Made by a program: the position numbers and the translations under genes. 64,000 nucleotides of DNA from Antedon mediterranea (lineage: Eukaryota; Animalia; Echinodermata), in NCBI RefSeq assembly GCF_964355755.1, contig NC_092676.1:1865788-1929787 (forward strand), read 5' to 3'. Numbering within the stretch: position 1 is the first letter of the stretch; the number at the start of each line of letters is the position of its first letter. The notes under the pieces were generated by a model. It saw only the letters and a list, made by a program, of their open reading frames with translations. It did not search any database and was not told the DNA's origin. This document shows, piece by piece, positions 2,551-63,289 of this stretch.

Positions 2551-4635
2551 TTAATTGTCTTCAATCTGAACAACATGGTCAGCATCAGAATGTAGTTCAC
2601 TTTCACCACGAATTGGTTCCTCTGATCGTGGACTACATTGGTTGATTTCTGCATATACAATGGTGCTTGCTTGAGATATAGGAGATTGTTGGACGTTATT
2701 AGGCACACTTGCTGCAGGTATATCTCTTGCAGTAGCTGCATCATTCACCGGTGGTACACTATGTTGTATATTACTGCTTCCTCTTCCATCTGTTGTATCT
2801 ATTGGTGGCACGACTTTGTTCGATTGTTGACCGGTTTGGTTACCTTGAATAGGTATTCTTCTCGGATCCCTTGGTGTTGTTGTTTTGCTTCTTATCCGAT
2901 CTCTTTCACCTCGAGTTTTCCGTTTCTTGTATAAATTCTGTTGAGATGATGCACCTATTACATCACTAGCGTTGTTTGAGTTCGGGTGTACTCTATCTCT
3001 TCTGCGATGGTGGTATGAAGCCAAATTACGCATTTTATCGGTGGACGAATTTCGCTGATATTTATGTTGTCTGTGTCTGCTGTGGTTGTTGTTGTACTGC
3101 GATATATGTGGGACTTTCGATCTGTGATGACGATTACGTGTAGCACTCCTATGTGTACTAGACGAGTTATTAGCTTCTGGACTTGTCCTCAAAGATGAAT
3201 GTCCACTGTCAGTCAATGGACGAGTGCTCTCGCTGGAATATCGATGTTTGCGGCGTGTAGAGGAGGACGGGGTTTCCGTAAGGTCACCACGAATGGCTCT
3301 TGTAACGTATTCACTGCCTCTCAAACCACTAACGTTGACATACCGTTGTGAGTACGGGCGTCGATCGACGGTAAAGACTTGCTGCTGCTGTTTTGGAGGT
3401 ATGTTCTTATTGGCAGCATGCGTTTTATTTTGATTTTGTTCACGCTTTTTCTTAAAGTAAACATTACAAATAATTATTAACATTAAACCTCCTATTCCCA
3501 AACATCCTATAATCAAAATTAAGTACCAGTCACTTTCTGATGATTCAGCAGTATTGTCTCCTTCATTTTCAAATCGAATCCTTCCGGTAGCAATTGACGC
3601 TCCAATTGCGTTCTCGATTTCGCAGACAACATTCGTACCGTCGTCTGCGCTGATAATTTGATATATTGTAAGTTCGTTCGACACACTTGAAATTGTTCTT
3701 ATTGAAAATCTATCTGAACTTGTGCTAATAATGTTACCTGCCATGAACCATGTGAATGTGACGTTAACTGGGTACGCATCTATGGCAGAACAAGTAAATG
3801 ATATGACGTCATTCTGGTTAGAGATAACAGCCAGTATCGGATCCAGATTGACATAGGGTCTGAAACTAACGTGTAATGGTTGGAATAAGCATGATGTTTG
3901 TACCTCAAGACCTCCACCAGAAGCAAAGCATGCATACTCAGCTTCATGGTGATCTCGTTGTAAATTAAGCGTCATTTTAAGGTTTATGGTGTACTCACTT
4001 GCGGTATAAGTTGTCGAGCTCATTGCTAATGTTTCAAACCCTGTGGAAGTTTTCTGTTTTAGCTCTAACTTTTCACCTGATAGAGACGCCTGTTTAAAAG
4101 CACACACAACGTCTAATTGCTCATCAAGTAACACAGTTCCAGTTCTGCTTATCAAACATGTTGGGAAATTACTTATAGGAATTGGTGTGACACTAACAGT
4201 CATACTGACACTTTCAAGAACACCGTTCTCGTCATCCACTAACGCGCATACGTAAACGCCAGCGTCGTCAGCAGAAACGAACGGTATTCGCAAGTCGTAA
4301 CTTCCCGATTCGTACCCGCCGAATACCTGCCACTGGCGTGGAATCGTGCCTCCTTCGACGGCTGTAATAGTTCCAAAAGACCATTGTAGCAGATATTTCT
4401 TACTAATAACAGTACTTGGTGTGAATGTACACATAATATATAGCGTGTCCTCTTCTGCTATGTTGATGCTGTCAGGGAAGACGTCTAAGCCACCTGACGT
4501 TAGGCCTATCTTTAGGCATAGCATTACTATCAGAAATAAAAAACAGTTCGTAATACAGCATTTTGATTCTTCGATGTAATTATCTATCTTTCTCCGTTTT
4601 CTAATCCTATAAAAACCACTGTATTTAGGTAACAT
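2551..4635 (-). CDS. Ig-superfamily type I membrane receptor 1 (V-type + 2 Ig, TM, long tail with ITIM-like IVYAEI); single coding exon
   Basis: First ATG at 4635 (frame open from 4731). Hydrophobic signal CFLFLIVMLCLKIG; C...W...DDAGVYVC; two further Cys-paired Ig domains; TM WYLILIIGCLGIGGLMLIIICNVYF followed by KKKR. Confidence 0.88.
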   Translation of the reverse strand: MLPKYSGFYRIRKRRKIDNYIEESKCCITNCFLFLIVMLCLKIGLTSGGLDVFPDSINIAEEDTLYIMCTFTPSTVISKKYLLQWSFGTITAVEGGTIPRQWQVFGGYESGSYDLRIPFVSADDAGVYVCALVDDENGVLESVSMTVSVTPIPISNFPTCLISRTGTVLLDEQLDVVCAFKQASLSGEKLELKQKTSTGFETLAMSSTTYTASEYTINLKMTLNLQRDHHEAEYACFASGGGLEVQTSCLFQPLHVSFRPYVNLDPILAVISNQNDVISFTCSAIDAYPVNVTFTWFMAGNIISTSSDRFSIRTISSVSNELTIYQIISADDGTNVVCEIENAIGASIATGRIRFENEGDNTAESSESDWYLILIIGCLGIGGLMLIIICNVYFKKKREQNQNKTHAANKNIPPKQQQQVFTVDRRPYSQRYVNVSGLRGSEYVTRAIRGDLTETPSSSTRRKHRYSSESTRPLTDSGHSSLRTSPEANNSSSTHRSATRNRHHRSKVPHISQYNNNHSRHRQHKYQRNSSTDKMRNLASYHHRRRDRVHPNSNNASDVIGASSQQNLYKKRKTRGERDRIRSKTTTPRDPRRIPIQGNQTGQQSNKVVPPIDTTDGRGSSNIQHSVPPVNDAATARDIPAASVPNNVQQSPISQASTIVYAEINQCSPRSEEPIRGESELHSDADHVVQIEDN

Positions 4636-5574
4636 TTCATCATTTGTTTGAATGAAAAGGCTGAGACAAGCGATCCATGACGAATGGCGGTAGGGGATGA
4701 CGCTATAGCGTTTATTGCCATGGCAAACCAACTTAGTATTGATTAGCTTCTAAACAACAGCAGTGCGAAAAATGTTCAACGGTTGAATATGACAGACATT
4801 TTGAAAAGAATCAATTCTTTAGATCTCTAAAATATTTCACATTTTTTCTATTTCATTGTTGTTTTTTTTTAAATTCAAAATAAAATTAATATCGCATACA
4901 CCCCAAATAACTACTGTCGGATAAAAAACGAACTTAATAATAACCTTTTCGAAAGGTGTTTTAAAGCGAGTGGAACAAAGCAAAGGGCTTTATTGATTTC
5001 CGTAATGTCTGCATGTGTATACATAAGACATTTGTGTCAATAGGCCAATTGTAAAATATAATTGCATATAACTCTCTCACACAGTAGGCAGACCATTGAG
5101 GCAGTTATTTTATACCTCCATGGGTACACCAGAATTCCGTGCGTCCTCAAAACGAACTCATTACGTAGGAGGAGCGTATATTTTCTTATAGGCCTACTTA
5201 TAAAACAGATTAGTTTCAAAATGTAGTGTAGGCTATATTGGCCTGCGTGTTGAATTTGCATTTCCAACAGAAAGATATAATCTGCCTTCCTTTTTGGAAA
5301 AGATGAACATTTTTTGATCATTACAACAATAATGTGACGTGGTAAAGTTACCAAGACAATTTATAATTCCGGTGATCTTCTTCATTCCTCCTCCATCAAT
5401 AATGGTAGGTTCCATCAAACTCCTAGGCAACAGTAATGAGTGCGCGCCACGGGTATGGAACGTCAATGTATTGCGTGCTGGGTGTGCCATACCTCGGTAC
5501 ATCAACAGATTGGGAAAATACAGCACATTAACACAATTGAAGGTGATAATTTAAACAATAAAATGTCAGGGATG

Positions 5575-5784
5575 AAAAATATATTTCAGCGATCCGATTT
5601 CTGTATTCTGTAACCTCCGAGGCCTGGAAGGGCCGATGCTCTACGACGGGTCAGGGTTGACATCTGCGCTGAAGACAGAGGGCCCTACTGCAATCGACAC
5701 GTGATGTCAGTCAAAACCTGCCGCTGGAACACGGATCCGCCAGGAAGCGGACGCACAGACGACAGCAAAACCACTCAGATCACC
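5575..5784 (-). ncRNA. Structured ncRNA gene 1 of an unassigned family (putative Pol III type-3 promoter)
   Basis: GC-rich island. 5' GGUGAUCUG pairs with 3' CGGAUCGCU using G-U wobbles that work only on the minus strand, followed by GAAAUAUAUUUUU. TATA lies 25 nt upstream and a PSE-like motif near -67. Confidence 0.7.
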
Positions 5785-5808
5785 TATACAGCATTATGTG
5801 ACTGTATT

Positions 5809-5856
5809 CTATATAAATATAAATAACATTGTATTGTTGCCGCATTGGTGTTGAAT
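5809..5856 (-). promoter_or_regulatory. PSE-like element plus TATA box of ncRNA gene 1; equivalents at 7448-7496, 8077-8124 and 10124-10171
   Basis: Minus-strand motif attcRacacc...caacaa(t/a)a. Its plus-strand tYgaat begins 67, 68, 67 and 67 nt from the four predicted +1 G residues. A TATA-like atag ends 25 nt before +1. Confidence 0.65.
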
Positions 5857-6842
5857 ACATTACATAATATTCATAAACCTAGCCTACATTTTAAACATGT
5901 TCTGTTTATTAAATAAATAATATTTTTGATAATTTTAGAAAGTAACCCAATGTCTCCTTTTGTTAAAACACACATTATTAAATATAAGAACATAACTTAT
6001 ATTAACTCTTAATCATTTTCGGTGTAGGCCTATAGGAAACAATTATATAATGTTAAAAGTCAGAATGGACCATTCCAAACAAAGGGAAGTCACATAGGTT
6101 TAAAACTTGGGTCCCACACAATAGTAACCTACTTAATCAGGCTCAATACATTTGGATAGTATAATAATTATAGTAGTACAAGAAAACAAATTTAAATGTT
6201 CTCAACTTACTCACTAGTATAGAGTCGGTTTTTAACCGGAAATATCTACTAGTGTAGGAAATTTTCTGTGCAATTATCAATTATGTAGATATTACGAGGT
6301 TCAATAGAAGACGGATGGAGTGCATGTCCACAAAAAAAATGTTTAAAATAAAAAAATATAAAATATTTATCGAATACAACCTAATATCGAAATAATACAT
6401 TTCAACTTCTTTTTCATACGTCAGAAATGTCTACATAGCTAATAATTCGATAATAATGTTTGCTATAGAGTGGCACGAATAGGCTTTCGTAGTTTTAACA
6501 GTAAAGGTATGGAAAGGCAAATACGACATAAACAGAGTACGCTAACTGATATTTGATTTATAAGACTAAACTTCTTTTATTTACTTTAAACGTCTTTATG
6601 TATACTAGATTATATTTTGCCAATATTTACGATCTCTGGATGACCGAGACACAACTGGTGCTGACCAGAGTTCAATTTAGACCTACCCTGGCGAGAGCGC
6701 ATCCTATCACATTCACATGGCATTGTTTCTCTCTTAGTTTCGATGTACAGCGCTTATTAGAGGTTTCACAACATATGATGCAGTATATTGTTATTATAGG
6801 CAATGACTATATAACATTATTTAAAAATAGCAAACGTTTATT

Positions 6843-6925
6843 TTATCAAAATTTGTTATCAAAGTTGTTTTGGTTCGCAGCACACTCTGTTGTAATTGAC
6901 AACGTTCACAACATAAGATTGCGCC
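6843..6925 (-). pseudogene. Remnant of the 3' end of an Ig receptor paralog (similar to gene 2 C-terminus)
   Basis: ttgacaacgttcacaacataagat here versus ttgacaacgttcacaatataagat at 11160-11183. It encodes SYVVNVVN versus SYIVNVVN in gene 2. Confidence 0.6.
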
Positions 6926-7174
6926 TGTGTAATACTATTCCACTCATATAATTAATATTACCAAATATGCCTACTACACATTAAACAGGACAAAGAAGAA
7001 ATCTTTATTTTACATCAGTATTCTACATTTGGCAAACAAACATTGAAATGGAAAATGGTTTGTGTTTTTATCTTATCATCTAAAAATGTTATAATAATTA
7101 TTTGTCAATTATTTATTGCTGCCAGATTGGTTGGGTGAGAGGAATGTTGTATGCATTTTTTAACAATTTTCTAC

Positions 7175-7423
7175 AAAAATGGTTTCAGTGATCCAAGTGA
7201 CAAACTAGTCCAAACCTTCTCACCTTGTGTCCTCCTTTAAGGCCTGGTGGAATCGGCTTTTATTCTTGCTTGGTGCATGCAGAACGCATACGTCCTATCC
7301 TAGCTAGTGACGTGGTTGTATGCCAGCAGAAGGGGAAATCCTGAGTTTTGATGCCACCAGGAGCGGCCGACTAGGACACCTTACAATCTTTCCAATACTC
7401 TCGTAAATGTCACTTGAACCACC
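7175..7423 (-). ncRNA. Structured ncRNA gene 2 of the same family
   Basis: GGUGGUUCAAGUGA/UCACUUGGAUCACU 14-bp terminal stem. Internal helices GUGUCCU/AGGACAC and CCUGGUGG/CCACCAGG. Tail GAAACCAUUUUU. TATAAATA and PSE-like motif upstream. Confidence 0.75.
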
Positions 7424-7842
7424 TGACTTTATTCAACGTTAATCATTCTATTTATAGGCATTAAAGGTGTATTTTGTTGGTAAATAGGTGTTGAATTTAA
7501 TACTTATTAAATAATAATAATCTTTCATTCGAATGTACAGCAATTAATTATGAAGTTTTTTGCACATTTTACAAATAGAAATGTATAAATAATATCTGCC
7601 TTTAGAAAAATTGGAAAAATATCTTTTGTGTGAACATGAAATGGCTTACTGTATTAACAAATGTTAACAAGAATTCAAGATTATCGTTACTCAAAATGGC
7701 ATAATTAACGTTGATTGACGCGGGGTACGACGGACACATAAAAAGAGATGAGGTATAATCAAATGTCATTTTATTTATTTTCTTGACAAAAATAAATTGG
7801 TTGAGAGGATTAATTGCATGTAAGCATTTTAGTAGAAGAGAA

Positions 7843-8052
7843 AAAAAGTGGTTTCAATGATCCAAGCTAGAACAAACCTCTCTTCGTCCTGTGTCCTCCT
7901 TTAAGGCCTGACGGAAATGTGGGTGACGGGAGTTGACGCCGAACGCCCTCTGGTATTCGTCGTATCCTTCCGCCTACCAAACACCGCACAGGAGCGGCCA
8001 CTAGACACCTTACAAGCTTTTCGGAACTCTCGTAAATGCCACCTGAACCACC
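7843..8052 (-). ncRNA. Structured ncRNA gene 3 of the same family
   Basis: GGUGGUUCAGGU/GCUUGGAUCAUU terminal stem; its changes relative to gene 2 preserve pairing. Helices GUGUCU/GGACAC and CCUG/CAGG. Tail GAAACCAC-U7. Same promoter spacing. Confidence 0.75.
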
Positions 8053-8381
8053 TGAGTCTATTGAATGTTAACCATTCTATATATAATCACTACATGTGCA
8101 TATTGTTGGTAATAGGTGTCGAATGAGAACAGCATCCATGTTTAGTTCATTCTTATTAGACCTACAAAGCATTTATCTTTGTTTTAGGCCTACATATTTT
8201 ACAAACAGAAAAGTATAAATAATATCTGCCTTTTTGGGAAAAAAAAAATACTATCTAAATGTTGTGACCATGAAACGAGTAAATTTAATCAGATGAAGGT
8301 ACCATTTCAAAATTGAATAAGGCCTACCATTTCAAAATGAAAGATCGTCGTTACTCAATGGTGTTAATTGACGTGGGGTAC

Positions 8382-9478
8382 TAGTCTGGGTTCCAGACGG
8401 AGTTTTGTCTTAATATTAGTAAAAAGATAAATATTTTGGCACATAATAATAATAATAATAAATAACATTTATAAAGCGCAAGAGACAAAGGTTTCAAAGC
8501 GCTGTGTTTTCCAAGATCAGTGCAAGTAGTAGCGTGCGATTATGCTTCTCTGAAGAGATGAGTTTTGAGTTTAGTTTTAAATGTGATAACAGATTTTGAT
8601 GAGCGTATTTCGAGTGGCGTTTCATACGTATACTACTTGATTTTGGATACTCCGTCTGGGGAAACACGCACAAGTCACGTGGTTTGACACCAAGAATTCT
8701 TGGTGCATACGATTATCCGGTTGACTAGTTTCAGCTGCATGCGATTGGCTACTCACTCGTACACCGTTTTAATATTCATATTTCAGAAGTTCAAAGACTC
8801 AACAACTAAGATGGTGCGCATGCGCTATGTTACGTTTAGACAACGTGTACTTGGTACATTGATGAAAGTTTCTGAAGGCTAGAAATGATTTTATATGGCT
8901 AGTAGTTTGGTAAACATTTGATGGGATTTTTCCCAAGAACATGAAAACTCGTCTTGATAAGATAGGCTGCTTCTCCGCAAATCAAACATTGAATGGATCA
9001 TTTATTACGCGGAGATAATTTGATTTAATTCCCACCCAGACCCTGTCCTGTTCTGTGTAGTGTGTGGTGTAGCTTTGTTGTGTGCCGGTGGCATGTAGGC
9101 CTACTTTATTGGCGTTTTATTTGGCAGGTCATACGTGCGAGTTGAGTAGGACCTACGAAAGAGGCCTAGGCCAATGACTAAACAATTAATAAAAAAACAA
9201 CTTGGCAACACGATTTTATCAACAGTCTCGTCTCGTACATTCAGCACTTTTTCATTTTGAAACAAGATGATCATTGGTTGATTCGAAATCCATATTTACA
9301 TACCGCCCGCCCCATATAGCCAAATACGGTATGATTACCTACGTCATTCTTATCGGACGTTTGCGGTCTACAAATCGATTTCTATACGCGTTTCACAAGT
9401 CTGTATTTTGAGACAAAAATCGCGGTCGCAATAAAAACAAATAAATAAAAAAGAAAATACAGACTTGGGGCAAGTCTA
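8382..9478 (+). mobile_element. Non-autonomous DNA transposon with TAG...CTA termini, terminal hairpins and a 9-bp TSD (AcademH-like)
   Basis: TSD gtggggtac at 8373-8381 and 9479-9487. End hairpins gtctgg-gtt-ccagac and agacttg-ggg-caagtct. Paralogous empty sites near 7720 and 10405. Confidence 0.8.
8446..8614 (-). mobile_element. 5'-truncated L2/CR1-group LINE 3' end nested in the AcademH-like element
   Basis: Minus strand reads FKTKLKTHLFREA* then a short UTR and (ATT)n tail. It is absent from the 1777-1952 copy at the cacata/tggcg junction. Confidence 0.7.
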
Positions 9479-9931
9479 GTGGGGTACAGACACGTCAGGC
9501 AAGTGAAAAACCCTAACACAATAATGTAGGACATCGTAATGTTTTTACTGGAAAAGATGTTCAGCTAATCTTCTTCACTATCACCTTCCATGTCAGAAAA
9601 TGGTAGGTTCCCACCAAACTTAGGTAACATGATAATGATTACCGCGCATGTATGGTATGGAACGCCCGTATGGTATGGAGCGTCAATATGGCATACTAGA
9701 AAAAATGTAGGTTGATCCGCACGTCACAATCTACGCATGTTTGTAACAATTTCACATTATTTAGGCTTAAAATCAATTAGTTTGTGAGCATTCAAAGAAT
9801 GAAACCTAATTTTCTCTTAGGCCTAATAAGTTTTACTTAGACTTTGTTGACAAAAATAGATTGGTTGGGTGAGAGCATTATTGCATGTAAGCATTTTATT
9901 TATTTTTAAGTGAAGAGAAAAAAATGTATAC

Positions 9932-10099
9932 AAAAGGTGTCTTCAGCAATTCAAGGAGCTCCGGGGCAGGTGAGTGGGAAACGTCGGATACCATGGCCAG
10001 TGGCGTCCTCCGTCGCCGGTAACTCTTCGAAATCCTCGCCAGGAGCAAGGAGGAGGCGGGGCGGCCGGCCGACCTTAGACAACCCTCACTTGAACCACC
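9932..10099 (-). ncRNA. Structured ncRNA gene 4 of the same family
   Basis: GGUGGUUCAAG/CUUGAAUUGCU terminal stem. Helices GUGAG/CUCAC, GUCGG/CCGAC, GGCCGG/CUGGCC and UCCUCC/GGAGGA. Tail GAAGACACCUUUU plus a second T7 run. Same promoter spacing. Confidence 0.75.
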
Positions 10100-11026
10100 T
10101 GTCTTTAGTGGATGTTAACCATTCTATATCTAATCAGTACAACAGTATATTGTTGGTAATAGGTGTCGAATATAGTACAACATCCATGTTTAGTTTGCTA
10201 GCATTTACATAATTTACAAACAGAAAAGTATACTAATCTGCCTTTTTTGGAAAAGATGAAAAACTATCTAAATTTTGTGACCATGAAACGACGTAGCTAC
10301 TTAACAAAGTTTAATTAGATGAAGGTACCATTTCAAAATTGAAGTAGGTCTACTGTTTCAAAATGGAAGATCACTCAACACTACAGGGCATTGATGTTGA
10401 TTGACGTGGGATAGGCCTACAGACATGCAAGTGATAAAATACAATAATGTAGGAAATGATAATGTTTTTACCGGATAAGATGCTAATCTTCTTCACCTTC
10501 CATGTCAGAAAATGGTAGGTTCCCACCAAACTCAGGTAACATGATATGATTACCGTCCATGTATGGTATGGAACGCCCGTATGGTATGGAGCGTCAATAT
10601 GGCATACCAGATGACCATGTGTGTCATAATTTTAATTTTTAACTGAAAAAATGTAGGTTGATTGGCACGTCACAGTACCAAATATTATTCGATTTATCTA
10701 CGCATGTTTGTAACAATTTCAAATGTTTTATTTAGGCTCAAAATCAATTCAAAAGAATGAAACCTTTTTGTCTTAGGCCTAATACGTTTTACTTAGGCTT
10801 AAAATCTGTTGGTTTTGTGAGAATCCAAAGGCTGAAACTTTGACGCATTTTTCTCGTAAGCCCAATAAGTGTTTACATTATTTTATTGTCGAAATTAACC
10901 ATTAAAAGTGATAATGACAAATATCAAAGCAGAAGGTTCCAATTCTTTGGAGAACAAAGTTCTTGTCTCACAGTGGCTTTCTACCTGAGAGTCAGTGGTT
11001 TCGATTAATACAGTTTTCTTTAGTTT

Positions 11027-11101: not shown

Positions 11102-13174
11102 TCAAAATTGTGTTGCGTCATTTTGATAACGGTTTGCTGGGGGAACGCTCTCTTTGTTATTGACAACGTTCACAATATAAGATCGTTTTTGTTTTACATT
11201 TTTAACATTAAGTTGATTATAAAGACTTCCTATAGCTTTTTGGTGTTTCTTGACATAAATGCCATGAGGTCGTATTTTACCAGAGTTCGACGCTTTTGAA
11301 GAAATCGGTACAAAACCAGCGTTGTTCCACAACGCACGCGTACTATCGTGATGAATTGTTTGCGTAGTGTCACGCACTGGTGGTCTGCGTCCGGTTTTGG
11401 CGGTTTTAGATTTGTTATATCGGCTAGACACTGGCCTATCGATATTATCGTCTGCGATTCTTTCTGAAGTTGTTACCGATACTCTTTCATCTAACTCTTC
11501 AAAGGTGATATCTTTAACTGACCATCTGTCTAAAGATTTATCACTTGTGTTTCCAGTTTCTTTAAAGTCCAAAACATACTTGTTACTACCTTGTTTAGAT
11601 TTTGAATCTGTGTTTTTCATTTTTGGACCTCTAAGTACCGTAGACTGACCTCCACTAGATTTTTTATTTTTCACTTTGCCTTTTTCTCCTATGATGTAAA
11701 TGTCCGCTTGTTTTATAACCACTTCATCGTAAACAAGACTCGCATTTTCTTCATAACTAACTGGTGATGTACTGGATGAATTCGATAATAGTCCAGAACG
11801 AGTTGATGGTGTCCTTTCACTAAGGTAAATACCAGACGTGGATGCTTCGGTGGCACTATACAATTCCTTCGAATCTGTACTAGATATTGATAAGGTAGTT
11901 TCTCGACCTGATGTTATCGAGGTGCTCCTTGCTTCGTCTGAATCTCTATCCGAAGGCCTGTGGTACTTCTGCAAAACTATGGGAGGCATTCTACGAGAAC
12001 GTCTTCTGTAATTATTCATCACAAATAGTTCATTTTGATCATCGTCTGGCTTGACAGTATATTCATTCTGCCATTTAAACGACGCTCTGGCACAAGTTCT
12101 CAAAAACACACGTAAAGACTTTTTGTTTCTAGTCGAAAGATATAAAATCAAACCAGCTATCAAAATAATACCAACAAGTATTCCAGACACCATAGGTCCC
12201 ACGTACTTTAAGCTATTTTCTACGAGTAGGCGTACGCTATTTTTACCTCTTCCTAAAGAATTTATGGCAAAGCAACCAATAATAAGCAAATCATGCTTTG
12301 TTTTATCAACATTTGGTATGTAAAGTCGTTTTCCTTGCACAATATATCCTTCTGTTTCATCAACTAGATAACCGTTTATATACCATTCGTGCTGGCTTGC
12401 GAACGGATTAGCGTTTGATTCACACGTCAGCGCAACCTCGTCTCCGTCTCGTACAGTGCTTGGTGTCATGGTTACACGCACTATAGGTATATATAAAATA
12501 TTGAAAGGTCCCACAACACAGTCATGTGACATGCCATCAGAAAACACAGCTTCACACGTGAGTTGAACGTCATTGTAAGATGGACTCGCATAGAATGAAA
12601 ACCCAATGTTATACCACAGTCTAGAATTCCAATTATCAACCCGTATGAAATATCTCGAAGTATCTTCTAAACTGGTTGCACCCTCCCACCAAAGAGTGCC
12701 TTCGTTTTCATTGCGATGATCATTCCCTTCAATAAGTTTTGCACACGTAATCGTCACAAGATCATTTTCTCTGACCAACGTTGAGCTTGCTGCGCAAACA
12801 TGTGGTTCTGTCGTCGCTGGAACCAAAATGTTTAAGTACGCGACAGAAATTACTTCTTCGTCGTCCGACCTCCAGACGCATTCATATCTACCTGTGTCCG
12901 AGGTCTCACAATATTTGATGTCTAATCTTGAGTATATTTTGTTCCCTTGATACGTTGCCGATACAAACCACTTGTTGGAGTTTAGACTATTATCAATAAG
13001 TTGGCCGTTTGGCAGTTTCCATTTTAAGACGCCCCCGGACACAATCACTTCACAAATAAATTGAGTTCCATGCAGCTGGAAGGTTGTAGTGTTATGAGGT
13101 CTTGTTGAAAACTCCTGACAATTGGCCACCATAAGTGTAGTGATGACGAAAGAAAAAACAAATGCTGCCTGCAT
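11102..13174 (-). CDS. Ig-superfamily receptor 2 (3 Ig, TM, tail with ITIM-like LVYDEV and SLYNQL); single coding exon
   Basis: Signal peptide MQAAFVFSFVITTLMVANC; DTGRYEC; two more Ig domains; TM VGPMVSGILVGIILIAGLILYL. Confidence 0.9.
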   Translation of the reverse strand: MQAAFVFSFVITTLMVANCQEFSTRPHNTTTFQLHGTQFICEVIVSGGVLKWKLPNGQLIDNSLNSNKWFVSATYQGNKIYSRLDIKYCETSDTGRYECVWRSDDEEVISVAYLNILVPATTEPHVCAASSTLVRENDLVTITCAKLIEGNDHRNENEGTLWWEGATSLEDTSRYFIRVDNWNSRLWYNIGFSFYASPSYNDVQLTCEAVFSDGMSHDCVVGPFNILYIPIVRVTMTPSTVRDGDEVALTCESNANPFASQHEWYINGYLVDETEGYIVQGKRLYIPNVDKTKHDLLIIGCFAINSLGRGKNSVRLLVENSLKYVGPMVSGILVGIILIAGLILYLSTRNKKSLRVFLRTCARASFKWQNEYTVKPDDDQNELFVMNNYRRRSRRMPPIVLQKYHRPSDRDSDEARSTSITSGRETTLSISSTDSKELYSATEASTSGIYLSERTPSTRSGLLSNSSSTSPVSYEENASLVYDEVVIKQADIYIIGEKGKVKNKKSSGGQSTVLRGPKMKNTDSKSKQGSNKYVLDFKETGNTSDKSLDRWSVKDITFEELDERVSVTTSERIADDNIDRPVSSRYNKSKTAKTGRRPPVRDTTQTIHHDSTRALWNNAGFVPISSKASNSGKIRPHGIYVKKHQKAIGSLYNQLNVKNVKQKRSYIVNVVNNKESVPPANRYQNDATQF

Positions 13175-13910
13175 GTTGTACCGTCACACAAACGATGTTA
13201 GCGGGTTTTTCGGAAGTTTACATGCTGTCTGCTGTCTTCTTGATGTTGTCGCCTGCCATGTACTAGTGGTTGAAGACCTACCGACCTGTCAATGGCCTTG
13301 GTTATACAGAAGGCTTATTTCAACTATGGCTAATGAAATGTCATGATTATAGTTGGCAGATCAAAAATCTACAGATGGTGTGGTGTTGACGAACTCAGCG
13401 CCATAAAAACCTATTTGCTTGCCAAACTTGCTGAAAGCGGCAACTCCTGTAATCAAAAGAAGACGGCAACGGCGAAATATATGAAGAAGAGAGATGTAAA
13501 GTAGGTAGAGGATAGCAGTGCCATTACGGTTAAATGACAAATAAAAGGCGGAGGTGCCAATTCATAGGATAATATGCGCTTAAATCAATCATTTACCAGC
13601 TTGTTACGCGCACTGCTGTGTTTTCAAAAGCAGTTTCATGTTTGTAGTTGTGGGACAATTCTATATGTTTCGATTTTGACACTTATCTTGATTCGATTGT
13701 ACTCTTTGTGACCTTCAATGGGTCACGGGCGCTCTATGACGGTGACATGCACTTTGACATTTCAGAATCGATGACGTCATTTATTTTATTTTATTAATAT
13801 CAGTTACATATTTCTAGACCTATTTAATTTGTAGATGCGTAGAAACGTTAAGGTCTTAACATTTATATAATTATAAAATGGAATAATTTAGAAGATGATG
13901 ACTTATTGAC

Positions 13911-16172: not shown

Positions 16173-17702
16173 CTATAAATCTGTGGACGGGATAATGGAA
16201 TCAATGTCTTCGGTAGAATCGACTTCTGATGGCAGTGAAGGATCATCCACATCTATATTGACGGTGTACGAGCCTTTCTTGCTATTAAAGTCTGTAACAT
16301 GAGGATTCACTTGGTAAACGTATGAGGCATCAGATGGATCTTCTTCTTCTGTCGTAGGCATATCTTGTACAATATAATCCGACATACTACTTTCGACACT
16401 GCCCTTTTTACCAATACTCGAAGTTTCGCTTTTCCGTCTAGGAATTGGTCGTAACCGATCATCGTCCTCGTCATTTTCACGTTGACGAGGATTAATATCG
16501 GGCAAATACCCGACATTAGTGTTCCCTCTTAATGAATTCGTTTGCCTCATTGGAATAATTACTGAACCGTTTTGTCTTTTTCTTCTTGCTGATTCCGCTC
16601 GTCGAATCAATTCTTTCTTTTGTATCTTCTTAATGGTTTTCTTTTGTCGGCAATACCAGGTCGTAAACGCAATCAGGATCACTAATATAATGAACAACAC
16701 AATGGTGACCAATATTGGCCCTACAATTTCAACTGTGGATTTACCGTCTACTGTCACAATAAAATATTCGTTTTCCCCTTCTCCGACCTCATTGGTCACC
16801 TGACAGGTCAACGTGACACCGTCATCGTTAGGGTCAACGTCAGGAAGGGTTAATAGTTTACCATTATTGTCCAGTTGAAACCCATTTGTCCGGCCATATT
16901 CTGTGATTAAACTTCCAGAATAAAACCATGTATATGTAAACACACTTGGATTGCCAGTGGCTTCACAAGAGAAGCCAACAGACTTACCAAGTTCGACATC
17001 TTCTGTGGTGGGTGTGACCTCAACTTTTGGTGGATACTGTACAGATAATACTAGATTACATTCCGAAAGTAAAAAAATCGAAACACACGAATACCGGCGG
17101 CCGTCATCGTTCGCACTAAAACTTAACTCACTCGTCGAAGGTGCGTATTTTGTAGAAGATGTTGTCGGCAAGTGGTTGCCCTCTGACCTCCAAACCAGAT
17201 CAGCAGTAGGACTACTGGATATACACGTCAATGTCACTATTTCATTTTCAACAAGTTCTCCACTTGGATTGGCAAAACATGTTGGCCTTCCGTCGCTACT
17301 TGGACTCATAACATACACATCTGCTGAAACTTCAGCAACAATGTTAGAATCAAATAAAACCTTACATTTATATTCTCCTCCATCGTTATCGTCCAGATTG
17401 TGTATGACAAGTATAAAGGTGTATTCATTCGCCGCATCATTGATGGTTTCTGTCTCTGTTGAAAATCTGTTTCCATACTCGGATGGAATAGCTGCTTCGT
17501 GGTTTATAAGTATCGAGCCTCTGGGAACTTCCCAGAGCACAACTGTCAAAGAAGACACACCGTTAACCGTGCATGCTAGTCGTTGATCTGTACCAGATAC
17601 ACCTGATGTATCGCGAGGCCCAGCTATTATCGTCTGTGTGTTCACATCATGTGCGACGATTAACAAATTCGCTGCCAAAATTATCACCTTCCAGCTCCAC
17701 AT
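16173..17702 (-). CDS. Ig-superfamily receptor 3 (3 Ig, TM, Tyr-containing acidic tail); single coding exon
   Basis: First ATG at 17702 gives signal MWSWKVIILAANLLIVA; DGGEYKC; YPPKV...FSCEATGNP...YTW; TM IVGPILVTIVLFIILVILIAFTTWY. Confidence 0.9.
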   Translation of the reverse strand: MWSWKVIILAANLLIVAHDVNTQTIIAGPRDTSGVSGTDQRLACTVNGVSSLTVVLWEVPRGSILINHEAAIPSEYGNRFSTETETINDAANEYTFILVIHNLDDNDGGEYKCKVLFDSNIVAEVSADVYVMSPSSDGRPTCFANPSGELVENEIVTLTCISSSPTADLVWRSEGNHLPTTSSTKYAPSTSELSFSANDDGRRYSCVSIFLLSECNLVLSVQYPPKVEVTPTTEDVELGKSVGFSCEATGNPSVFTYTWFYSGSLITEYGRTNGFQLDNNGKLLTLPDVDPNDDGVTLTCQVTNEVGEGENEYFIVTVDGKSTVEIVGPILVTIVLFIILVILIAFTTWYCRQKKTIKKIQKKELIRRAESARRKRQNGSVIIPMRQTNSLRGNTNVGYLPDINPRQRENDEDDDRLRPIPRRKSETSSIGKKGSVESSMSDYIVQDMPTTEEEDPSDASYVYQVNPHVTDFNSKKGSYTVNIDVDDPSLPSEVDSTEDIDSIIPSTDL

Positions 17703-19434
17703 TTTAATATTAAATCTCACAATTTGAGTAATTTATGTCCATTTCCTTTCTATATGGTCCTTTTTGGTCATGGTATTGCCTTTTGTGGGTGGAAAAAACC
17801 GTCGTACCAAGCACCAACACTCGTAGTATTATTATTACAGTGAATTTCAAATAGTTCTCACAGTAGATCACTTGCACTATTGTCATCTGCTTCTATATTA
17901 CGCATGCGTACTGATGCAATCTAATCTATCAATAAAAGCTCCACCTTTTTTCGTTTTGTTGGTTGAACAAACACAAAAGATGATTCACTTGCTTTCTTTA
18001 CAGCGAACAGAAATGAAAGGAGATCCTTGCCAGAAAGGTTGATTACGCCAACTAATTCCTCCATATTAAAACGAAACTAATTGTTAACCAAAATGTTACA
18101 AGGACCAGCTGCAGCGCAGCAAATTAAAATAATAACTTGATTACTTCTACTGATTAACGATGATAATGACGGTCGGTCTGTTTATCAAGATAAAATGACG
18201 TCAAATATAATTATGATGATGACGATCGAGAAAAATATCTTAGGCCTATCTTAAACATATCTAGTAAGTTAAAAAAATAACAGTTCACGTATTTGAAAAT
18301 ATCTCTACTTTGAGCATGCGTATTATGTGATTTTGTCTACATCTTTGTAAACGTTGACACATAGGTCATTACACTTGTTTAGACATATACATTCAGATAT
18401 TAAGAATATTTTTGTTATGATTTTGAATTCGATAACAAAGGTTTTTTTTAATTAATATATAAATGATCAGTGAAGAGTGTGAAAGATTAAGATTTCAGAG
18501 TTTTGTTTCCCACTACAGTTACCACTAGAAGTATCGTCAAATTCATTTTGATTCGCTTTAACTGTATTTTGTCTTTATGTGTAAGCTGACTTTGAGGTTT
18601 GGTCAACCGGCTCAGCTACAGTGATTAAGTTCACTTAGGTTGACCCTGTCTCCCAATTTAAGTTTTGTTTATGTATATACTGAAATAGACCGAATAAATA
18701 ATGAAATTAAATGAAAATATAACTTCACTTCAAGATAAATACAATAATAACAAATTTATAATACATTTAGATAACAAGAATATTATATTCATTCTAATTC
18801 GCCGATTGAAATTCAGGTTGTGTTTTGTTTCATTGTTACAATAGTAGATCTATAGTCATATTTCATGTAATACGTGCTAAATTATATGTATATTGCACTT
18901 TGTAAAAATCAATATAAACGCTAAGGTTAATGAAATGCAGAAAAGTGAGGAAAAAAAACGAAACATCGATATTCTAATATTTTGAATTACATTTATTTAT
19001 CAAGATTTGCAGTATTCAAATTATAAACTATGTATAACCCTTTTATGCAAAACATTAATTACCAGCATTTTTTATTTTAACCTTAAGTTCTGTTTCATGA
19101 ACACTATGCAGTATATTTTTAAAGTACCAAATACAAGATTTCGCCAGGAAAATATTGCACAGAAGCCAACCTGCCCACCAGCAGAAAACATAGAGAAATA
19201 CTGTAATCATCATTAGTATTGGAATATAACGTGCTGACAAAACGTATTTTAGAACTTGAAGTTGAATGCATTATATTACCAAGTTTAAGATTTTTAATAA
19301 TGCAAACTTTAATCCGATATCAGAGGTCATTTTAATTAATGTAAATCTGATTAAGATTTCAGGGTTTGTTTTTCATACTACAATTACTAGAAGTAGGCAA
19401 TGGCCAAATGCTTGACGTGTGAAACAATCGCTTT

Positions 19435-19816: not shown

Positions 19817-21211
19817 TTAGGAATACTCTTCTTTGACAATGTTCAATCCTGGATTCCTGGTAAAATTGAGATCCGCGTACACAACTGTATCGTCTGTTTT
19901 TTTAATATTATTGTCTGCTTTTGGCTGTGTTGAGCGCCCGTTTCTACCAAGATTATTTATTCGTTCGTTCGTTCTTCTAGGTTGTAACGATCTAGGCCTA
20001 GTTGAAGAGGACACTTTTGTGGACGGATGCTGTCTGACAGGAGATACGGGCACTCGTTCAGACTTAGTCCTATTTGACTTAGACCTACATCTATACTGTT
20101 CTAAATCATTATCCACAGTTTCTTTTGTAGAATTAAACACGATGTCTTTTGTTTTTGTTTCGTAACCTTTAGATTCGTCTTTTTGGAAATTGTCCTCAAA
20201 ATTCAATCTTGCATCTTTTTTGTGATGACCTCGTGAATGATTTGAACTAGTCGACTTTATTTTGGATTCAGTTTTCGCTCTCATAATAGTTTCAGTGTTC
20301 ACGCTTGTTGTCTGTTTATTTGAGTTGGATGAACTCACAACTTCGTCTTCGGAAGACTGATCGGATAGAACTGCAATTGGAACACCTACTCCTTCTCGAA
20401 GAGATGACATATCCAGCACCTGTTGAGGTTGAGGAACTGTCTCCTTACAATACTTACACTCTCTGAATCGAAATGCAAAGACGATTACGATGGCGAAAAG
20501 AATTAAGGCAATGATGCTAAGAACGGCCACAATTATGTATGGTACGATATTGCTATTGCTCCAGTCAACATGGAGTGTCACGGAACAGGAGAGTGGATTC
20601 TGCATGTTTGGTAAAGACGCCTCACAGACAAACTGTCTACCGTTATCGTCCCTATTCACAATTTTATTATATTTAACAGATGTGTATGTAGCATTTCCAT
20701 TTGGTTTATTACTTATTACGACTCCATTTTTAGTCCATGTTAGATCTGGTACTTCTTTTATATAATCTAACGTCGATGAGAAGCATGTCATTTCAACATT
20801 ATCTCCTGACGTTAGGCTTTTCGGTTGTTGTTTACAGTTTGGTAACCATGACAACGTAGGGTTGTAAACTCTTAGAGTGGCAGTAGATGAATCTGCACCA
20901 TCTGATTCACAAAACAGCATAATATCTACAAACGTTTCTGTCATAGAAGAGTTACCTGTAATTGATAACGTCGAACGTTGATCATTTGCAGTTATATGAT
21001 ACATGTCCGAACGTTTAATCTCGACGTCTTTTTCATTATATGTTTTCCTGAACCATTTTATTTCGTTTGATTTGCCAATACAATCAAATTTGGCAGAGTG
21101 AGTAGGAATAGCTATCAGTACAGTCTGCAAAGGGCGAATAGTCAGAGTACATTCGCATTTTGAAAACAGGAAATACGCAATGCATAACGTTACTAAATGG
21201 AAAACATTCAT
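19817..21211 (-). CDS. Ig-superfamily receptor 4 (2 Ig, TM, C-terminal ITIM VVYADL); single coding exon, probable 5'UTR intron 21255-21746
   Basis: ATG at 21211 gives signal MNVFHLVTLCIAYFLFS; TM IVPYIIVAVLSIIALILFAIVIVFAF. Minus-strand acceptor tgtttcag at 21255 and donor gtaagt at 21746. Confidence 0.88.
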   Translation of the reverse strand: MNVFHLVTLCIAYFLFSKCECTLTIRPLQTVLIAIPTHSAKFDCIGKSNEIKWFRKTYNEKDVEIKRSDMYHITANDQRSTLSITGNSSMTETFVDIMLFCESDGADSSTATLRVYNPTLSWLPNCKQQPKSLTSGDNVEMTCFSSTLDYIKEVPDLTWTKNGVVISNKPNGNATYTSVKYNKIVNRDDNGRQFVCEASLPNMQNPLSCSVTLHVDWSNSNIVPYIIVAVLSIIALILFAIVIVFAFRFRECKYCKETVPQPQQVLDMSSLREGVGVPIAVLSDQSSEDEVVSSSNSNKQTTSVNTETIMRAKTESKIKSTSSNHSRGHHKKDARLNFEDNFQKDESKGYETKTKDIVFNSTKETVDNDLEQYRCRSKSNRTKSERVPVSPVRQHPSTKVSSSTRPRSLQPRRTNERINNLGRNGRSTQPKADNNIKKTDDTVVYADLNFTRNPGLNIVKEEYS

Positions 21212-22397
21212 CTTCAATTTATTTTTTACTTTCTTCTTCTTAAAATTGTAGTATCTGAAACATAAAATCAGATAAACAAGGTGAAAATACTAAAATTTAC
21301 TCAATAAATTATTTAAACAGCACATGCCTATAATACAATTTCAAGCTCAACATATGCTGGGTACAATACATTCCATGGTCATTTTAGTACAACAACAATT
21401 CCAAATACGTTTTTTTTCCACAATACTTTAATTTGTTTCGACGCCTGCAGCAATACTCGGTGGAAATATTTAATAATAAGGATTATCATTATTAATATCA
21501 TTATCATAATAATTACGTAAAAATGATCTGAGTATTATATACCCCATCTATATGGATGATAATTTAAAGTTATAATTGTCTTAAAAAAAACCAATTCTTT
21601 TCTTTTACAAATTTATAATGCAATCCTGATTTTAAAATAACTACTATAAATAAGCCTTCGATATGCAGCGTGGATTACGAAGACTATCAATGCATAACAT
21701 CTACTGAACAGGTTAGGATAAAAGATGTGAATTGTTTAGTACTTACCACACCAAATAGTACACTGTCTACCAAAATGAATAGGCCTACATTCGCTCAGTC
21801 GTATTAACCATTTATGGTCTTTTAAACTTGGTAGTTAATTTCAGTTCTTTTCCATTGAAAACAAACACACAGAGCCGTTTACATTGTTGCTATTCATCCA
21901 TACTTCATTGCCAAGTCTTTCAGTAAAAATTAGCATATTGGTTTCATTGAATTAAATAGAGTCTTTTGTTATGTCATGAAAAGGCCCGTTATTTGTAAAT
22001 CATCGATGCGTCTAGTTCGCCAGTCATTCTGTGTTCGTGTTGTCGTTCGGTATTAAATCAATCGTACAAGTGTCGCGCTCTCAGCTACTTGTAACACGGT
22101 TTCACACAAGCAAAACGCATCGGACCTGTCTGCTTCTAATTCGATTTATACTGTATACACGAATTGAATGCATTCCTCCAAATAAAAACCGTCACTCATT
22201 CAATCAAATCTCTTCTATTTTATTTCTGATTATCTCGTTAAAACTGTCCAGTTTGGATTCAATATCAGAGACTATGTTTTGTAAAAATTCATATCAAAAT
22301 AGATCTACATTAATAATGGATTTTTAATAAAGTTTCGTTTGTTTCGAAATCAGGCCTTTGCAGTACAATGAAAAGACAAAATCTAACGCACAGGTTA

Positions 22398-25290: not shown

Positions 25291-26820
25291 CTAATATAAA
25301 GGTGTATTAAATTCTACGTCATCGATATTACCATTTTCTATATCTGGTGAGTAAGCTTGATTGTCAATCGTGTTCACGTCATTGTAATCATTACTACGTA
25401 CAGACGATCGGTTATCGGTATACTCGGAAATACCCGAACGCTGAGAGGCTCGGCTTTTTTGGGATACACGACTTTTATGCGATTCATCCCGAACTAGATT
25501 AGCTTCAGAGCCTCCACTAAAGTCGTCATAACCATCAATAAGGTCATCTTCGTTACTGCCCTGTTGTCGCATAGACGTCTGTCGCGATTCGTTTACATGA
25601 TAATTTGCATTTTTCTCTTCGTCATCTCCGGAGTCTCTCTCACAACAGCAAATGATACAGATACATGTTAGGAAGAATAACAGCAGCCCTCCACAAGCGA
25701 TGATTATAAGGAGGATGTAGGTTTCAAACGGAAGTAGTCTGTCCTCCTCTTGAATGACGATGCTAGCTGATCTTGAACCAATAGTGTTGCTCGCTGTACA
25801 TGTGATGTTTTGTCCGATGTAACTCTTGCGAATACCATCAAGCGTCAGTTTGCTCGTAGTCTTATCTTCAGTTGCAGGCGTAATTATGTTTCTTTTGTAC
25901 GTCCACTCAACAGAAGAGTTTGTAGGTGGGTTAGCGATAACGTTACATTCCAATATAACCGTTTCATCAGAGTCATCATCGTATATAAACAGTTCATTTG
26001 GGCTTATACTCACAACTGGTGAGTACATCACTTGGATTGGATTTAAGGTGGAGGTGGTGTAGTCACATGAAAACTCATCATCAACAGCAGGATGCATCGC
26101 TTTGCATCTGTAAGATGCTTCATGATCCTCATAAGACAACTTAAATGTCGCTGTCTCGGTTGTCCGACCATTATCTTCTATAACAGTAGAACTTGGAATA
26201 ACCTGGTTAAACCCGGAAGATGTTATTCTGATAATTTGAAGAACTGGCAAAGGAACTCCACCATCATCAATCACACATTCCAACGTAACCATTTCATTTT
26301 CTGTAAAAGGCGACATGTCCGGAAGACTAGCTGTAACGGAACAGGTTGCCGGATCGCCACTCGGCGATATAGAACGTTCATTTACCGCTAGTTCAGCAGT
26401 TGCCATTTGCGTTGTTCCTTCATTGACAATAAGACAATAATATGTCCCTTCGTCAGCTTTCACAGTTTCAGATATTAGTAAGTTGTAAACACTATCCTCT
26501 GGATAACCATTCATTATTGACAGTCGTGGGTATCCTGTCGGGTTCCTATTGGTGTAAGGTCCGATGGTTATTGTATCGTCCTCTGGATTACTTGGTTGAA
26601 AGTGCCAGTACACTTCATCTCCGCCACTAATGTCAATGTCTACACTACACAAAATCCTTGTAGTTGCACCAACAGCACTTGTAGTATTACTGGGAGAGGT
26701 AATGTACGATCCAGCACCTACAGATGTACCAATGGAACACGCCAGGCAAACCATCAACAGACATATTTTCCAGGCTACCATTTTGATTCCAAAATAATTA
26801 ACAATATTCAACATTGACAT
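25291..26820 (-). CDS. Ig-superfamily receptor 5 (3 Ig, TM with Cys cluster, acidic Tyr tail); single coding exon
   Basis: Signal MVAWKICLLMVCLACSIG (alternative ATG 26781); DEGTYYC V-type domain; TM YILLIIIACGGLLLFFLTCICIICCC. Confidence 0.9.
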   Translation of the reverse strand: MSMLNIVNYFGIKMVAWKICLLMVCLACSIGTSVGAGSYITSPSNTTSAVGATTRILCSVDIDISGGDEVYWHFQPSNPEDDTITIGPYTNRNPTGYPRLSIMNGYPEDSVYNLLISETVKADEGTYYCLIVNEGTTQMATAELAVNERSISPSGDPATCSVTASLPDMSPFTENEMVTLECVIDDGGVPLPVLQIIRITSSGFNQVIPSSTVIEDNGRTTETATFKLSYEDHEASYRCKAMHPAVDDEFSCDYTTSTLNPIQVMYSPVVSISPNELFIYDDDSDETVILECNVIANPPTNSSVEWTYKRNIITPATEDKTTSKLTLDGIRKSYIGQNITCTASNTIGSRSASIVIQEEDRLLPFETYILLIIIACGGLLLFFLTCICIICCCERDSGDDEEKNANYHVNESRQTSMRQQGSNEDDLIDGYDDFSGGSEANLVRDESHKSRVSQKSRASQRSGISEYTDNRSSVRSNDYNDVNTIDNQAYSPDIENGNIDDVEFNTPLY

Positions 26821-35778: not shown

Positions 35779-36268
35779 GTCTATATCGTGCCTAGCTTAC
35801 CTGGATAAACCAACATAAGCCTCTCTCTTCGACGAGAGGTAAACATTACGAAAAGAAGAACATTAATAACATTAATTTTTCCCCACCCCCGTCGGATAAT
35901 GGATCAGTCCGCCACCAGTACGCCCTCAAGTGAGACACACCCACTTATCATCGTCATCATTTCTTTTCGTAACGTCGTTGTGTACGCACGTCTTTTTTGA
36001 ACACATTCCTGGAATTCCTGAGGAATTTGCGATAAAGACCTTTATACTGTAGACTGGAAGAGAAGAATAGAGCAAGAAAACGAAGCTAAGTGTAGTAGAT
36101 CGTTATCTTGTGGTGGATACGTTTAGAATCGTTACCCTTGGCTAGTTGCCAGGAGTTAAAATTTAGCGTTGTAAGCCGTTATCCAGTGTGTTTCACCTGG
36201 ATAGAAATACTGGAAGATCTTTTGTTGTTCGTTAGGCTAGTGGGGAAAAGTAGGTCTGTTAGATCACC

Positions 36269-37798: not shown

Positions 37799-37838
37799 CG
37801 GCCCGGGGACGCCCGTCCCTCCAAGCGAGGGCGGGCAG

Positions 37839-47069: not shown

Positions 47070-47141
47070 CGCCCCAACCGAGACTCGAACTCGGACCGCC
47101 TGCTTGATATGCAGATGTCCTAACCATTAGACCACTGGGGC
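47070..47141 (-). tRNA. tRNA-like gene or pseudogene with ATC (Asp) anticodon; may be a SINE head
   Basis: Cloverleaf: acceptor GCCCCAG/TTGGGGC; D arm GTCTAATGGTTAGGAC; anticodon arm TCTGC-ATATCAA-GCAGG; T arm CCGAG-TTCGAGT-CTCGG; followed by ACTTTTT. Confidence 0.6.
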
Positions 47142-63073: not shown

Positions 63074-63289
63074 CCTTGTTCTAGATGTGGTAAAGATGTG
63101 GAAGCAGGTGAGATTGGGTTGTATGTTGATGGGAAGCAGGAGGAGGAGTGTTGGCATCCGGCCTGCTTCACCTGTACAACCTGTGAAGAGATTCTAGTTG
63201 ATCTCGCTCACTTTGTGAAGGATTCACAAATATACTGTGAACGCCATTATGCTGAGCTAATAATGCCACGATGTGCTGGCTGTGATGAG
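63074..63289 (+). CDS. PET-LIM protein exon 5 (LIM1 and start of LIM2); gene continues past the window
   Basis: CSRC...WHPACFTCTTC...YCERHYAE..PRCAGCDE then donor gtaaat. Confidence 0.93.

Follow-up and report, generated by a model that had tools for sequence, protein, structure and literature searches.

The 64,000-nucleotide stretch of the genome of the crinoid Antedon mediterranea considered here (contig NC_092676.1, positions 1,865,788 to 1,929,787; hereafter, the window) harbors a cluster of four related minus-strand units, g1–g4, with predicted RNA products of 168–249 nt (Table 1). The coordinates, strand and motifs of the four units given in the original prediction, which had been made from the letters of this DNA, were reproduced by re-inspection and pattern search: the shared 5′ end GGUGRUYYRRGUG begins at 10099, 8052, 7423 and 5784, and these are its only matches on both strands of the 64 kb. 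The units stand out, as described originally, as GC-rich islands (GC content of 0.47–0.61 vs. approximately 0.3–0.4 in the surroundings).

Each unit is preceded by two elements, the first likened in the original prediction to a proximal sequence element (PSE) and the second to a TATA box; both were found in all four genes at the fixed spacing claimed for them, "PSE" and "TATA" being labels by position only. The motif ATTCRACACC starts at -72, -72, -73 and -72 in g1–g4, respectively, CAACAA at -56 (g1–g3) or -55 (g4), and ATAGAAT at -28 throughout. Each composite pattern of these motifs has four matches on both strands of the window, all of them at g1–g4. A promoter matrix built from three promoters finds the gene left out with 44.3, 47.2, 40.8 and 34.3 bits (g1–g4), and the next scores listed, at most 21.1 bits, are one-base shifts of the same sites. 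This likeness exceeds the effect of a recent duplication, since the region -75 to -1 of g4 is homologous to that of the other units (z 3.4–5.6), whereas its region -300 to -76 displays no homology to them (z -0.0 to 0.8).

At the predicted start, all four genes carry an A at -1 preceded by a pyrimidine, so transcription may begin one base earlier than G+1. At the other end, the predicted tail (GAA, a short spacer and oligo-U) is present in every unit, with T4 in g1 (T5 in another allele, and a T7 run behind it), T7 in g2, and T5 in g3 and g4. Metazoan U6 genes combine PSE, TATA box and oligo-T (PMC1761439), and a PSE-sized element plus a TATA-like box at a fixed upstream distance, the mark of type-3 genes of RNA polymerase III (Pol III), was found here. 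Upstream sequences of echinoderm U6 genes diverge strongly, according to a sea star preprint (bioRxiv 10.1101/2023.01.09.523328); in the window, Rfam at the gathering threshold detected no snRNA genes. Judged from the sequence, g1–g4 are real paralogous units with a full U6-type Pol III gene layout, and at least most of them are very probably expressed.

Table 1. Features of the gene cluster and its immediate surroundings (positions of the window)
Feature	Position	Strand	Remarks
g1 PSE-like element (ATTCGACACC ... CAACAA), -72 to -51	10150..10171	-	
g1 TATA-like element ending ATAGAAT, -33 to -22	10121..10132	-	
g1 predicted RNA, 168 nt	9932..10099	-	weakest terminal stem; core 10065-10057 + 10019-10007
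g1 3′ end		-	T4; one allele with T5; 11 nt beyond it a T7 run
g2 PSE-like element	8103..8124	-	pattern and promoter matrix
g2 TATA-like element	8074..8085	-	pattern and promoter matrix
g2 predicted RNA, ~210 nt	7843..8052	-	T7 run to 7841; core 7998-7989 + 7910-7890
g2 composition	7843..8052	-	g1-like flanks, g3-like body
g3 PSE-like element	7474..7496	-	pattern and promoter matrix
g3 TATA-like element	7445..7456	-	pattern and promoter matrix
g3 predicted RNA, 249 nt	7175..7423	-	16-bp terminal stem including GUG-CAC; T5 end
g3 core motif	7367-7358 + 7246-7226	-	
g4 PSE-like element	5834..5856	-	pattern and promoter matrix
g4 TATA-like element	5806..5817	-	pattern and promoter matrix
g4 predicted RNA, 210 nt	5575..5784	-	predicted long rod, z -4.15; T5 end
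g4 core motif	5751-5741 + 5626-5614	-	internal T4 runs at +15, +69
Spacer block past g4, with homology to 10608-10441 and also to 9844-9496	5326..5493	-	score 88, shuffle maximum 49
High-copy 1.1-kb insertion	8382..9478	.	9-bp target duplication (8373-8381, 9479-9487)

The predicted RNAs have a common terminal stem formed by the first ten bases and a strand located 12–13 nt from the end: all 40 cells of pairs 1–10 are paired, and with the eleventh pair added the figure is 43 of 44 (97.7%), vs. 20.5–50% in slid registers. Seven pairs of the stem vary on one side and one on both. With only four rows, the alignment could not be expected to pass the column-shuffle control, and it did not (99 and 129 of 500). 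The longest helix between the 5′ and 3′ ends spans 11, 12, 16 and 10 bp (g1–g4) on the minus strand vs. 6, 7, 9 and 5 bp on the plus strand, a minus-strand length reached by 1.85%, 0.8%, 0% and 3.2% of 2000 shuffles, respectively. The complete pairing and the shorter plus-strand helices support the earlier suggestion of selection on the stem of the minus-strand RNA.

Fold prediction draws a less uniform picture. The mean pair probability of the terminal stem is 0.19 in g1, where the stem competes with pairing to the tail, 0.59 in g2, 0.99 in g3 and 0.98 in g4. A GUG/CAC pair, claimed originally for two genes, was recovered as a well-predicted continuation of the stem solely in g3 (probability 1.00); in g1 it costs ~4 kcal/mol and has a probability of 0.00. 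The tails of g2 (7843-7855) and g3 (7175-7186) could instead pair with the 5′ end over 7 bp, vs. only 4 bp in g1 and g4, so a switch is possible in the modeled structures of the former two. Compared with dinucleotide shuffles, folding of the whole RNA gave z of -4.15 for g4, -1.32 for g3, -0.68 for g2 and +0.26 for g1.

Inside the units, a two-part core, CCGCY(Y)CC and GGC-N2-7-GGAGG, recurs in all four genes; both halves stand in order in g1 and g4, where only 0.125% and 0.06% of shuffles match a motif that was, however, chosen after the fact. The core is predicted as a helix-loop-helix in g4 (probability 1.00), with the inner helix at 0.67 in g2. Its sequence is thus shared by the four genes; a shared structure is only partly supported by the models.

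The bodies and the flanks of the genes tell different histories. The flanks of g1 and g2 are 89% identical upstream and 93% downstream, whereas alignment of their interiors does not exceed that of shuffles (60% vs. 59%). Conversely, g2 and g3 are 72% identical in the far-upstream flank vs. 77% inside. The common blocks of g2 and g3 comprise a 5′ block of 64–66 nt (86% identical, z 15.2), an identical stretch of 21 nt and a 3′ block of 23 nt (91%, z 8.6), and the arms between the blocks are unalignable (z 0.2 and 1.5). Three distinct body types are therefore represented: g1, g2/g3 and g4. The simplest reading would be that conversion or unequal exchange gave g2 its g1-type flanks together with a g3-type body, and that the three body types persist.

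Sequencing depth was derived from contigs at least 85% alike; it is no copy number, and copies less than 80–85% alike would escape it. On this scale, the genes lie at flank-level depth (27.6–47.4 in run X2) vs. 38,899–97,495 on the insertion at 8382-9478, which is approximately a thousandfold deeper than its flanks. A covariance model built from the four copies, one of the checks proposed with the original prediction, finds only g1–g4 in the window, the next match there reaching 5.3 bits. Another of its checks concerned hundreds of dispersed copies as expected for a short interspersed element (SINE), and flank-level depth speaks against these among copies at least 80–85% alike. Hence, it is highly improbable that the units are copies of a SINE or another dispersed repeat, for all their Pol III-like character, GC richness and terminal T runs: the upstream promoters have been retained, which argues against retroposition because it would have dropped them.

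Several observations on allelic variation belong here. The segment 5535-6667, comprising g4 and its promoter, is represented by a single contig type at about half the depth of its neighbors in four runs of one sample; presence/absence polymorphism or a strongly diverged second allele is possible. In the interior of g2 (7890-8042), two alleles differ by six substitutions and eight gap bases in ~150 bases; both occur in one sample, and one of them also in X1, a run tentatively taken for RNA whose reads, however, cover intergenic and repeat sequence like low-depth DNA and are uninformative on expression. None of the 16 variants examined falls in pairs 1–10, and two alleles in the extended terminal stem retain pairing (C to U opposite G). 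In sample S2, 14 of the 36 variants tallied among the rows listed fall in gene bodies, i.e., in 627 of 2870 bases (p 0.015); the tally left out g4, repeat rows, rows found in X1 only and rows of the g1 contig cross-aligned to the g2 promoter, and it is biased because the g2 interior, covered by two separate contigs, favors detection. The excess of variants in the gene bodies is thus a weak hint. CpG is not depleted in g1, g2 and g4 (13/15.5, 13/13.7 and 15/15.2; g3, 7/13.7).

One could read this variation as a sign of a partly or wholly decaying cluster, in which duplicates of one ancestral gene have in part fallen silent and their interiors drift. The weak stem of g1 and its lack of a folding signal, the biased S2 tally, the internal T4 runs of g4 and the halved depth around this gene would fit such a scenario. 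Still, it is unlikely: all four genes keep every promoter element at its fixed spacing and all ten stem pairs, even though the flanks of g4 display no detectable homology and the interiors are unalignable, and the undepleted CpG of g1, g2 and g4 points in the same direction.

The absence of a match to known families, noted originally, was borne out by Rfam. At the gathering threshold, a search of the whole window returned one tRNA and nothing at g1–g4; at relaxed E-values (up to 10), the genes gave only weak unrelated matches of at most 17.4 bits. A likeness of words of the g2/g3 core to stretches of human 7SK and SRP RNA is possible but is given no weight here. Telomerase RNA was considered and rejected, since no 7-nt template word for TTAGGG repeats is present in any of the four genes, and so were C/D snoRNA and Sm-class snRNA, with no box C (RUGAUGA) or Sm site in any of them. 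Antisense targets within the window were sought as well, and the longest matches outside the cluster, 10–15 nt, are at chance level. A terminal-stem pattern matching three of the four genes had no match in viral contigs and found three stretches in metagenome contigs; the latter were dismissed as chance, for by eye they lack the upstream motifs and look microbial, and the covariance model gives one of them 14.7 bits, another 8.2 bits and the third no score. These blanks are uninformative on distribution because the collections are not animal genomes. In a literature search, mostly at listing level and outside subscription papers, no description of such genes or of an echinoderm Y RNA was found; PMC12135203 and PMC4604435 contribute only short motifs.

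A 7SK-like nature had been among the options raised originally. According to PMC10083321 and PMC8406779, 7SK RNA needs a GAUC hairpin and a 3′ hairpin (SL4/M8). Highly derived 7SK-like RNAs, binding HEXIM and LARP7 and regulating P-TEFb, would share with g1–g4 the external type-3 layout and a 5′ end paired with a 3′ segment, as in the circular model. The two facing GAUC motifs of g4 (positions 4 and 191) and the alternative 7-bp helix between tail and 5′ end of g2 and g3 also agree with this option, and the same sources describe invertebrate 7SK as poorly conserved, with a second divergent copy in Drosophila. However, no hairpin that could serve LARP7 precedes the U run (the tail is 12–13 nt long and forms none in the folds), and a GAUC paired in a 5′ hairpin is lacking: g1–g3 contain 0, 1 and 1 GAUC, respectively, and the facing motifs of g4, the only paired ones, lie in the terminal stem. 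With four divergent tandem copies and no Rfam 7SK match in addition, a 7SK-like identity seems quite improbable.

The chances of divergent vault RNAs are, if anything, slimmer. The genes of vault RNAs occur in clusters, are transcribed by Pol III and contain internal A and B boxes; the sea urchin has a vault RNA (PMC10491885). The same source gives them paired ends and a variable middle, as in g1–g4, and ascribes an external TATA box and proximal elements to the human ones. Nevertheless, g1–g4 are longer and yield no Rfam Vault match, a B-box pattern is absent from all four genes, and the A-box-like stretch at +3 lies too close to the predicted start.

The comparison favored here is that with Y RNAs and the stem-bulge RNAs (sbRNAs) of nematodes. 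Y RNAs are described as products of four clustered Pol III genes, 100 ± 20 nt long, with conserved stems and variable loops and with a Ro60 site consisting of a 7-bp helix with a bulged C (PMC4726728), of which Xenopus Ro60 contacts mainly the 5′ strand GGUCCGA (PMC4201824). Y RNAs and sbRNAs have in common clustered Pol III genes, conserved terminal stems, variable loops and a La-binding U tail (PMC4726728, PMC4450293). Paired ends forming a terminal stem, together with a U tail, were likewise found in g1–g4. The resemblance of the 5′ ends to Y RNAs noted originally is supported: nucleotides 4–10 read GGUUCAA, GGUUCAG, GGUUCAA and GAUCUGA in g1–g4, matching GGUCCGA at 5, 4, 5 and 5 of 7 positions, and every mismatch is a transition. 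For five of seven matches, the chance per position is 0.002; for the pattern of purines and pyrimidines, it is 0.008. In place of CG stand CA in g1–g3 and UG in g4, each one step away from it. Also in favor of a Y affinity, two tunicate genome papers, in which Y and vault RNAs were not found, put the failure of homology search to detect Y RNAs down to sensitivity.

With these observations in hand, an undescribed animal Pol III RNA family is slightly favored, i.e., either an echinoderm counterpart of Y RNA without the Ro60 bulge or a family without a vertebrate relative, of which g1–g4 would be the first members. Stem and core would be fixed in all paralogues of this family, and the interiors would be exchanged or diversified more quickly than the flanks, all within a cluster of Ig-domain receptor genes. 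The leading explanation, that the RNAs serve as protein scaffolds in the manner of Y RNAs and sbRNAs, with terminal stem and core in common and arms that differ between paralogues, is plausible but tentative.

Several observations weigh against this reading. As for the genes themselves, g4 carries two internal T4 runs (+15 and +69): either the host Pol III needs T5, which would fit the T7, T5 and T5 ends and the T5 allele or T7 run of g1, or the g4 transcript is cut short. Folding z-scores are significant in g4 only, the core helix is disfavored in g3 (0.08) and g1 (0.00, at a cost of ~10 kcal/mol), and four alleles break predicted interior pairs (probability 0.65–0.97), some of them perhaps artefacts beside an 8-base indel. 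As for the affinity to Y RNA, the comparison with GGUCCGA was made after the fact on four non-independent genes, and there is a likeness of the 5′ strand to the A box of tRNA genes as well. The bulged C of the lower stem is missing, as stated originally (bulged registers give non-pairs in all four genes), and so is CGA; the RNAs are, as also stated, longer than Y RNAs (168–249 nt vs. 100 ± 20 nt); the U tail does not follow directly after the stem; an upper-stem GUG-CAC is not predicted in three of the four genes, that of g3 being part of the terminal stem. The sbRNA motif UUAUC is approached by UUGUC at +18 in g1 and is not found within one mismatch in g2–g4. Finally, Rfam Y_RNA was absent at E up to 10 for each gene and for the first 45 nt of g2, although a model of a 100-nt Y RNA may fail to span these longer RNAs. 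The defining features having been tested and not found, g1–g4 are not filed as Y RNA.

Alternatively, g1–g4 could be type-3 Pol III genes without any relation to Y RNA, forming a family of their own that may be confined to crinoids or echinoderms. Its rod-shaped products would act as protein decoys or scaffolds, and the Y-like 5′ strand would be a coincidence. The missing Rfam match and the lack of most Y features agree with this view, as do the conserved internal core and GAA tail, without a Y counterpart in the passages compared, the predicted folding of g4 as a long rod, and the position of the cluster among single-ORF Ig-domain genes. A rod with a terminal stem, a conserved central core and a variable apical arm would be analogous to adenovirus VA RNA or nc886. 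However, in all four genes the strand at +4 departs from GGUCCGA by transitions only, and the overall layout equals that of Y and sbRNA genes; this alternative deserves attention but is less likely than the Y/sbRNA-like reading.

If the Y/sbRNA-like scaffold is taken as a working model, each unit would likely be transcribed separately by Pol III from its external (U6-type) promoter into an RNA of 168–249 nt. SNAPc and TBP would read the -72 and -33 elements, respectively; Pol III would start at G+1 or at the A at -1 and stop at T5 or a longer run, and La would bind the tail. The terminal stem may dock one shared protein and the core motif a second one, and the variable apical arm could provide each paralogue with its own partner or location. 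The ancestor of the 5′ strand would be a Ro60 site of Y type, whose CGA and bulge have been lost; without these, canonical binding of Ro60 is predicted to be weak or absent.

The cluster is flanked by two co-oriented single-ORF Ig-domain genes. These two are among five long uninterrupted Ig-domain ORFs of the window (Pfam), all on the minus strand (2551-4749, 11102-13183, 16173-17732, 19817-21289 and 25291-26820), that are co-oriented and look like intronless receptor genes; for the 693-aa one, no relatives were found among 1510 candidates. Beyond g4, the spacer block appears, from its homology, to be what is left of the tandem unit; a fifth gene was sought there with the promoter matrix and the covariance model, and none was detected. 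The high-copy insertion sits 330 bp upstream of g2 and is separate from the genes. Its terminal inverted repeats are short and imperfect, a short relative of it lies at 1777-1955, and its 9-bp target duplication presumably makes it Mutator-like. Another high-copy repeat fragment is located between g3 and g4 (6639-6775; depth up to 21,123 in X4).

Farther away, the tRNA gene at 47070-47141 (minus strand, 57.9 bits) was called Asp with the anticodon ATC and may be a variant or a pseudogene; this anticodon was reported as not detected in a tunicate genome. A GC-rich element on the plus strand (36263-40738) contains ORFs that overlap, a reverse transcriptase (PF00078) and, as a weak match, an integrase N-terminus; it is embedded in an array of 55-bp repeats on either side and may be DIRS-like. 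The exon 63074-63289 encodes a LIM-domain protein, 100% identical to a protein of Antedon mediterranea, with the next matches at most 67%. The sequence TAGGCCTA occurs 33 times on the plus strand of the whole window vs. 0.69 expected from base composition.

Few U6-type Pol III genes are known in animals, most of them from vertebrates, flies and nematodes, and among invertebrate deuterostomes the detection of Y, vault and 7SK RNAs is difficult. The shared promoter of g1–g4 offers an echinoderm type-3 promoter model for listing such genes in a crinoid genome, and the four units provide a seed model for searching other echinoderms. If related to Y RNA, they could reveal which Y function, Ro60 binding or the replication role of the upper stem, survives outside chordates and nematodes; if not, they would represent a new RNA family. 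With its discordant flanks and bodies, the cluster could also serve to test whether gene conversion spares the identity of the paralogues.

Among the known systems, the U6-type (type-3) promoter is matched by an upstream element of ~22 bp and a TATA-like box at fixed spacing, a G/A start and a T-run end, but the RNAs are neither U6 nor U6atac by Rfam. The nematode sbRNAs (PMC4450293) are likewise an invertebrate multigene Pol III family; their ends pair, and their loops vary in size and cannot be aligned. In contrast to them, g1–g4 lack the bulged C in the lower stem, approximate UUAUC only in g1 and, in three of the four genes, have no separate 9-bp upper stem with UG-CA. From vertebrate Y RNAs, g1–g4 differ in the lack of the bulged C and CGA, in the 7–8-nt GAA spacer before the U run, in the extra conserved internal core and in the absence of an Rfam match; they resemble them in the four-gene cluster with separate Pol III-type promoters, the paired ends, the variable interior, the U tail and a 5′ strand at least one transition away from GGUCCGA and followed by GUG.

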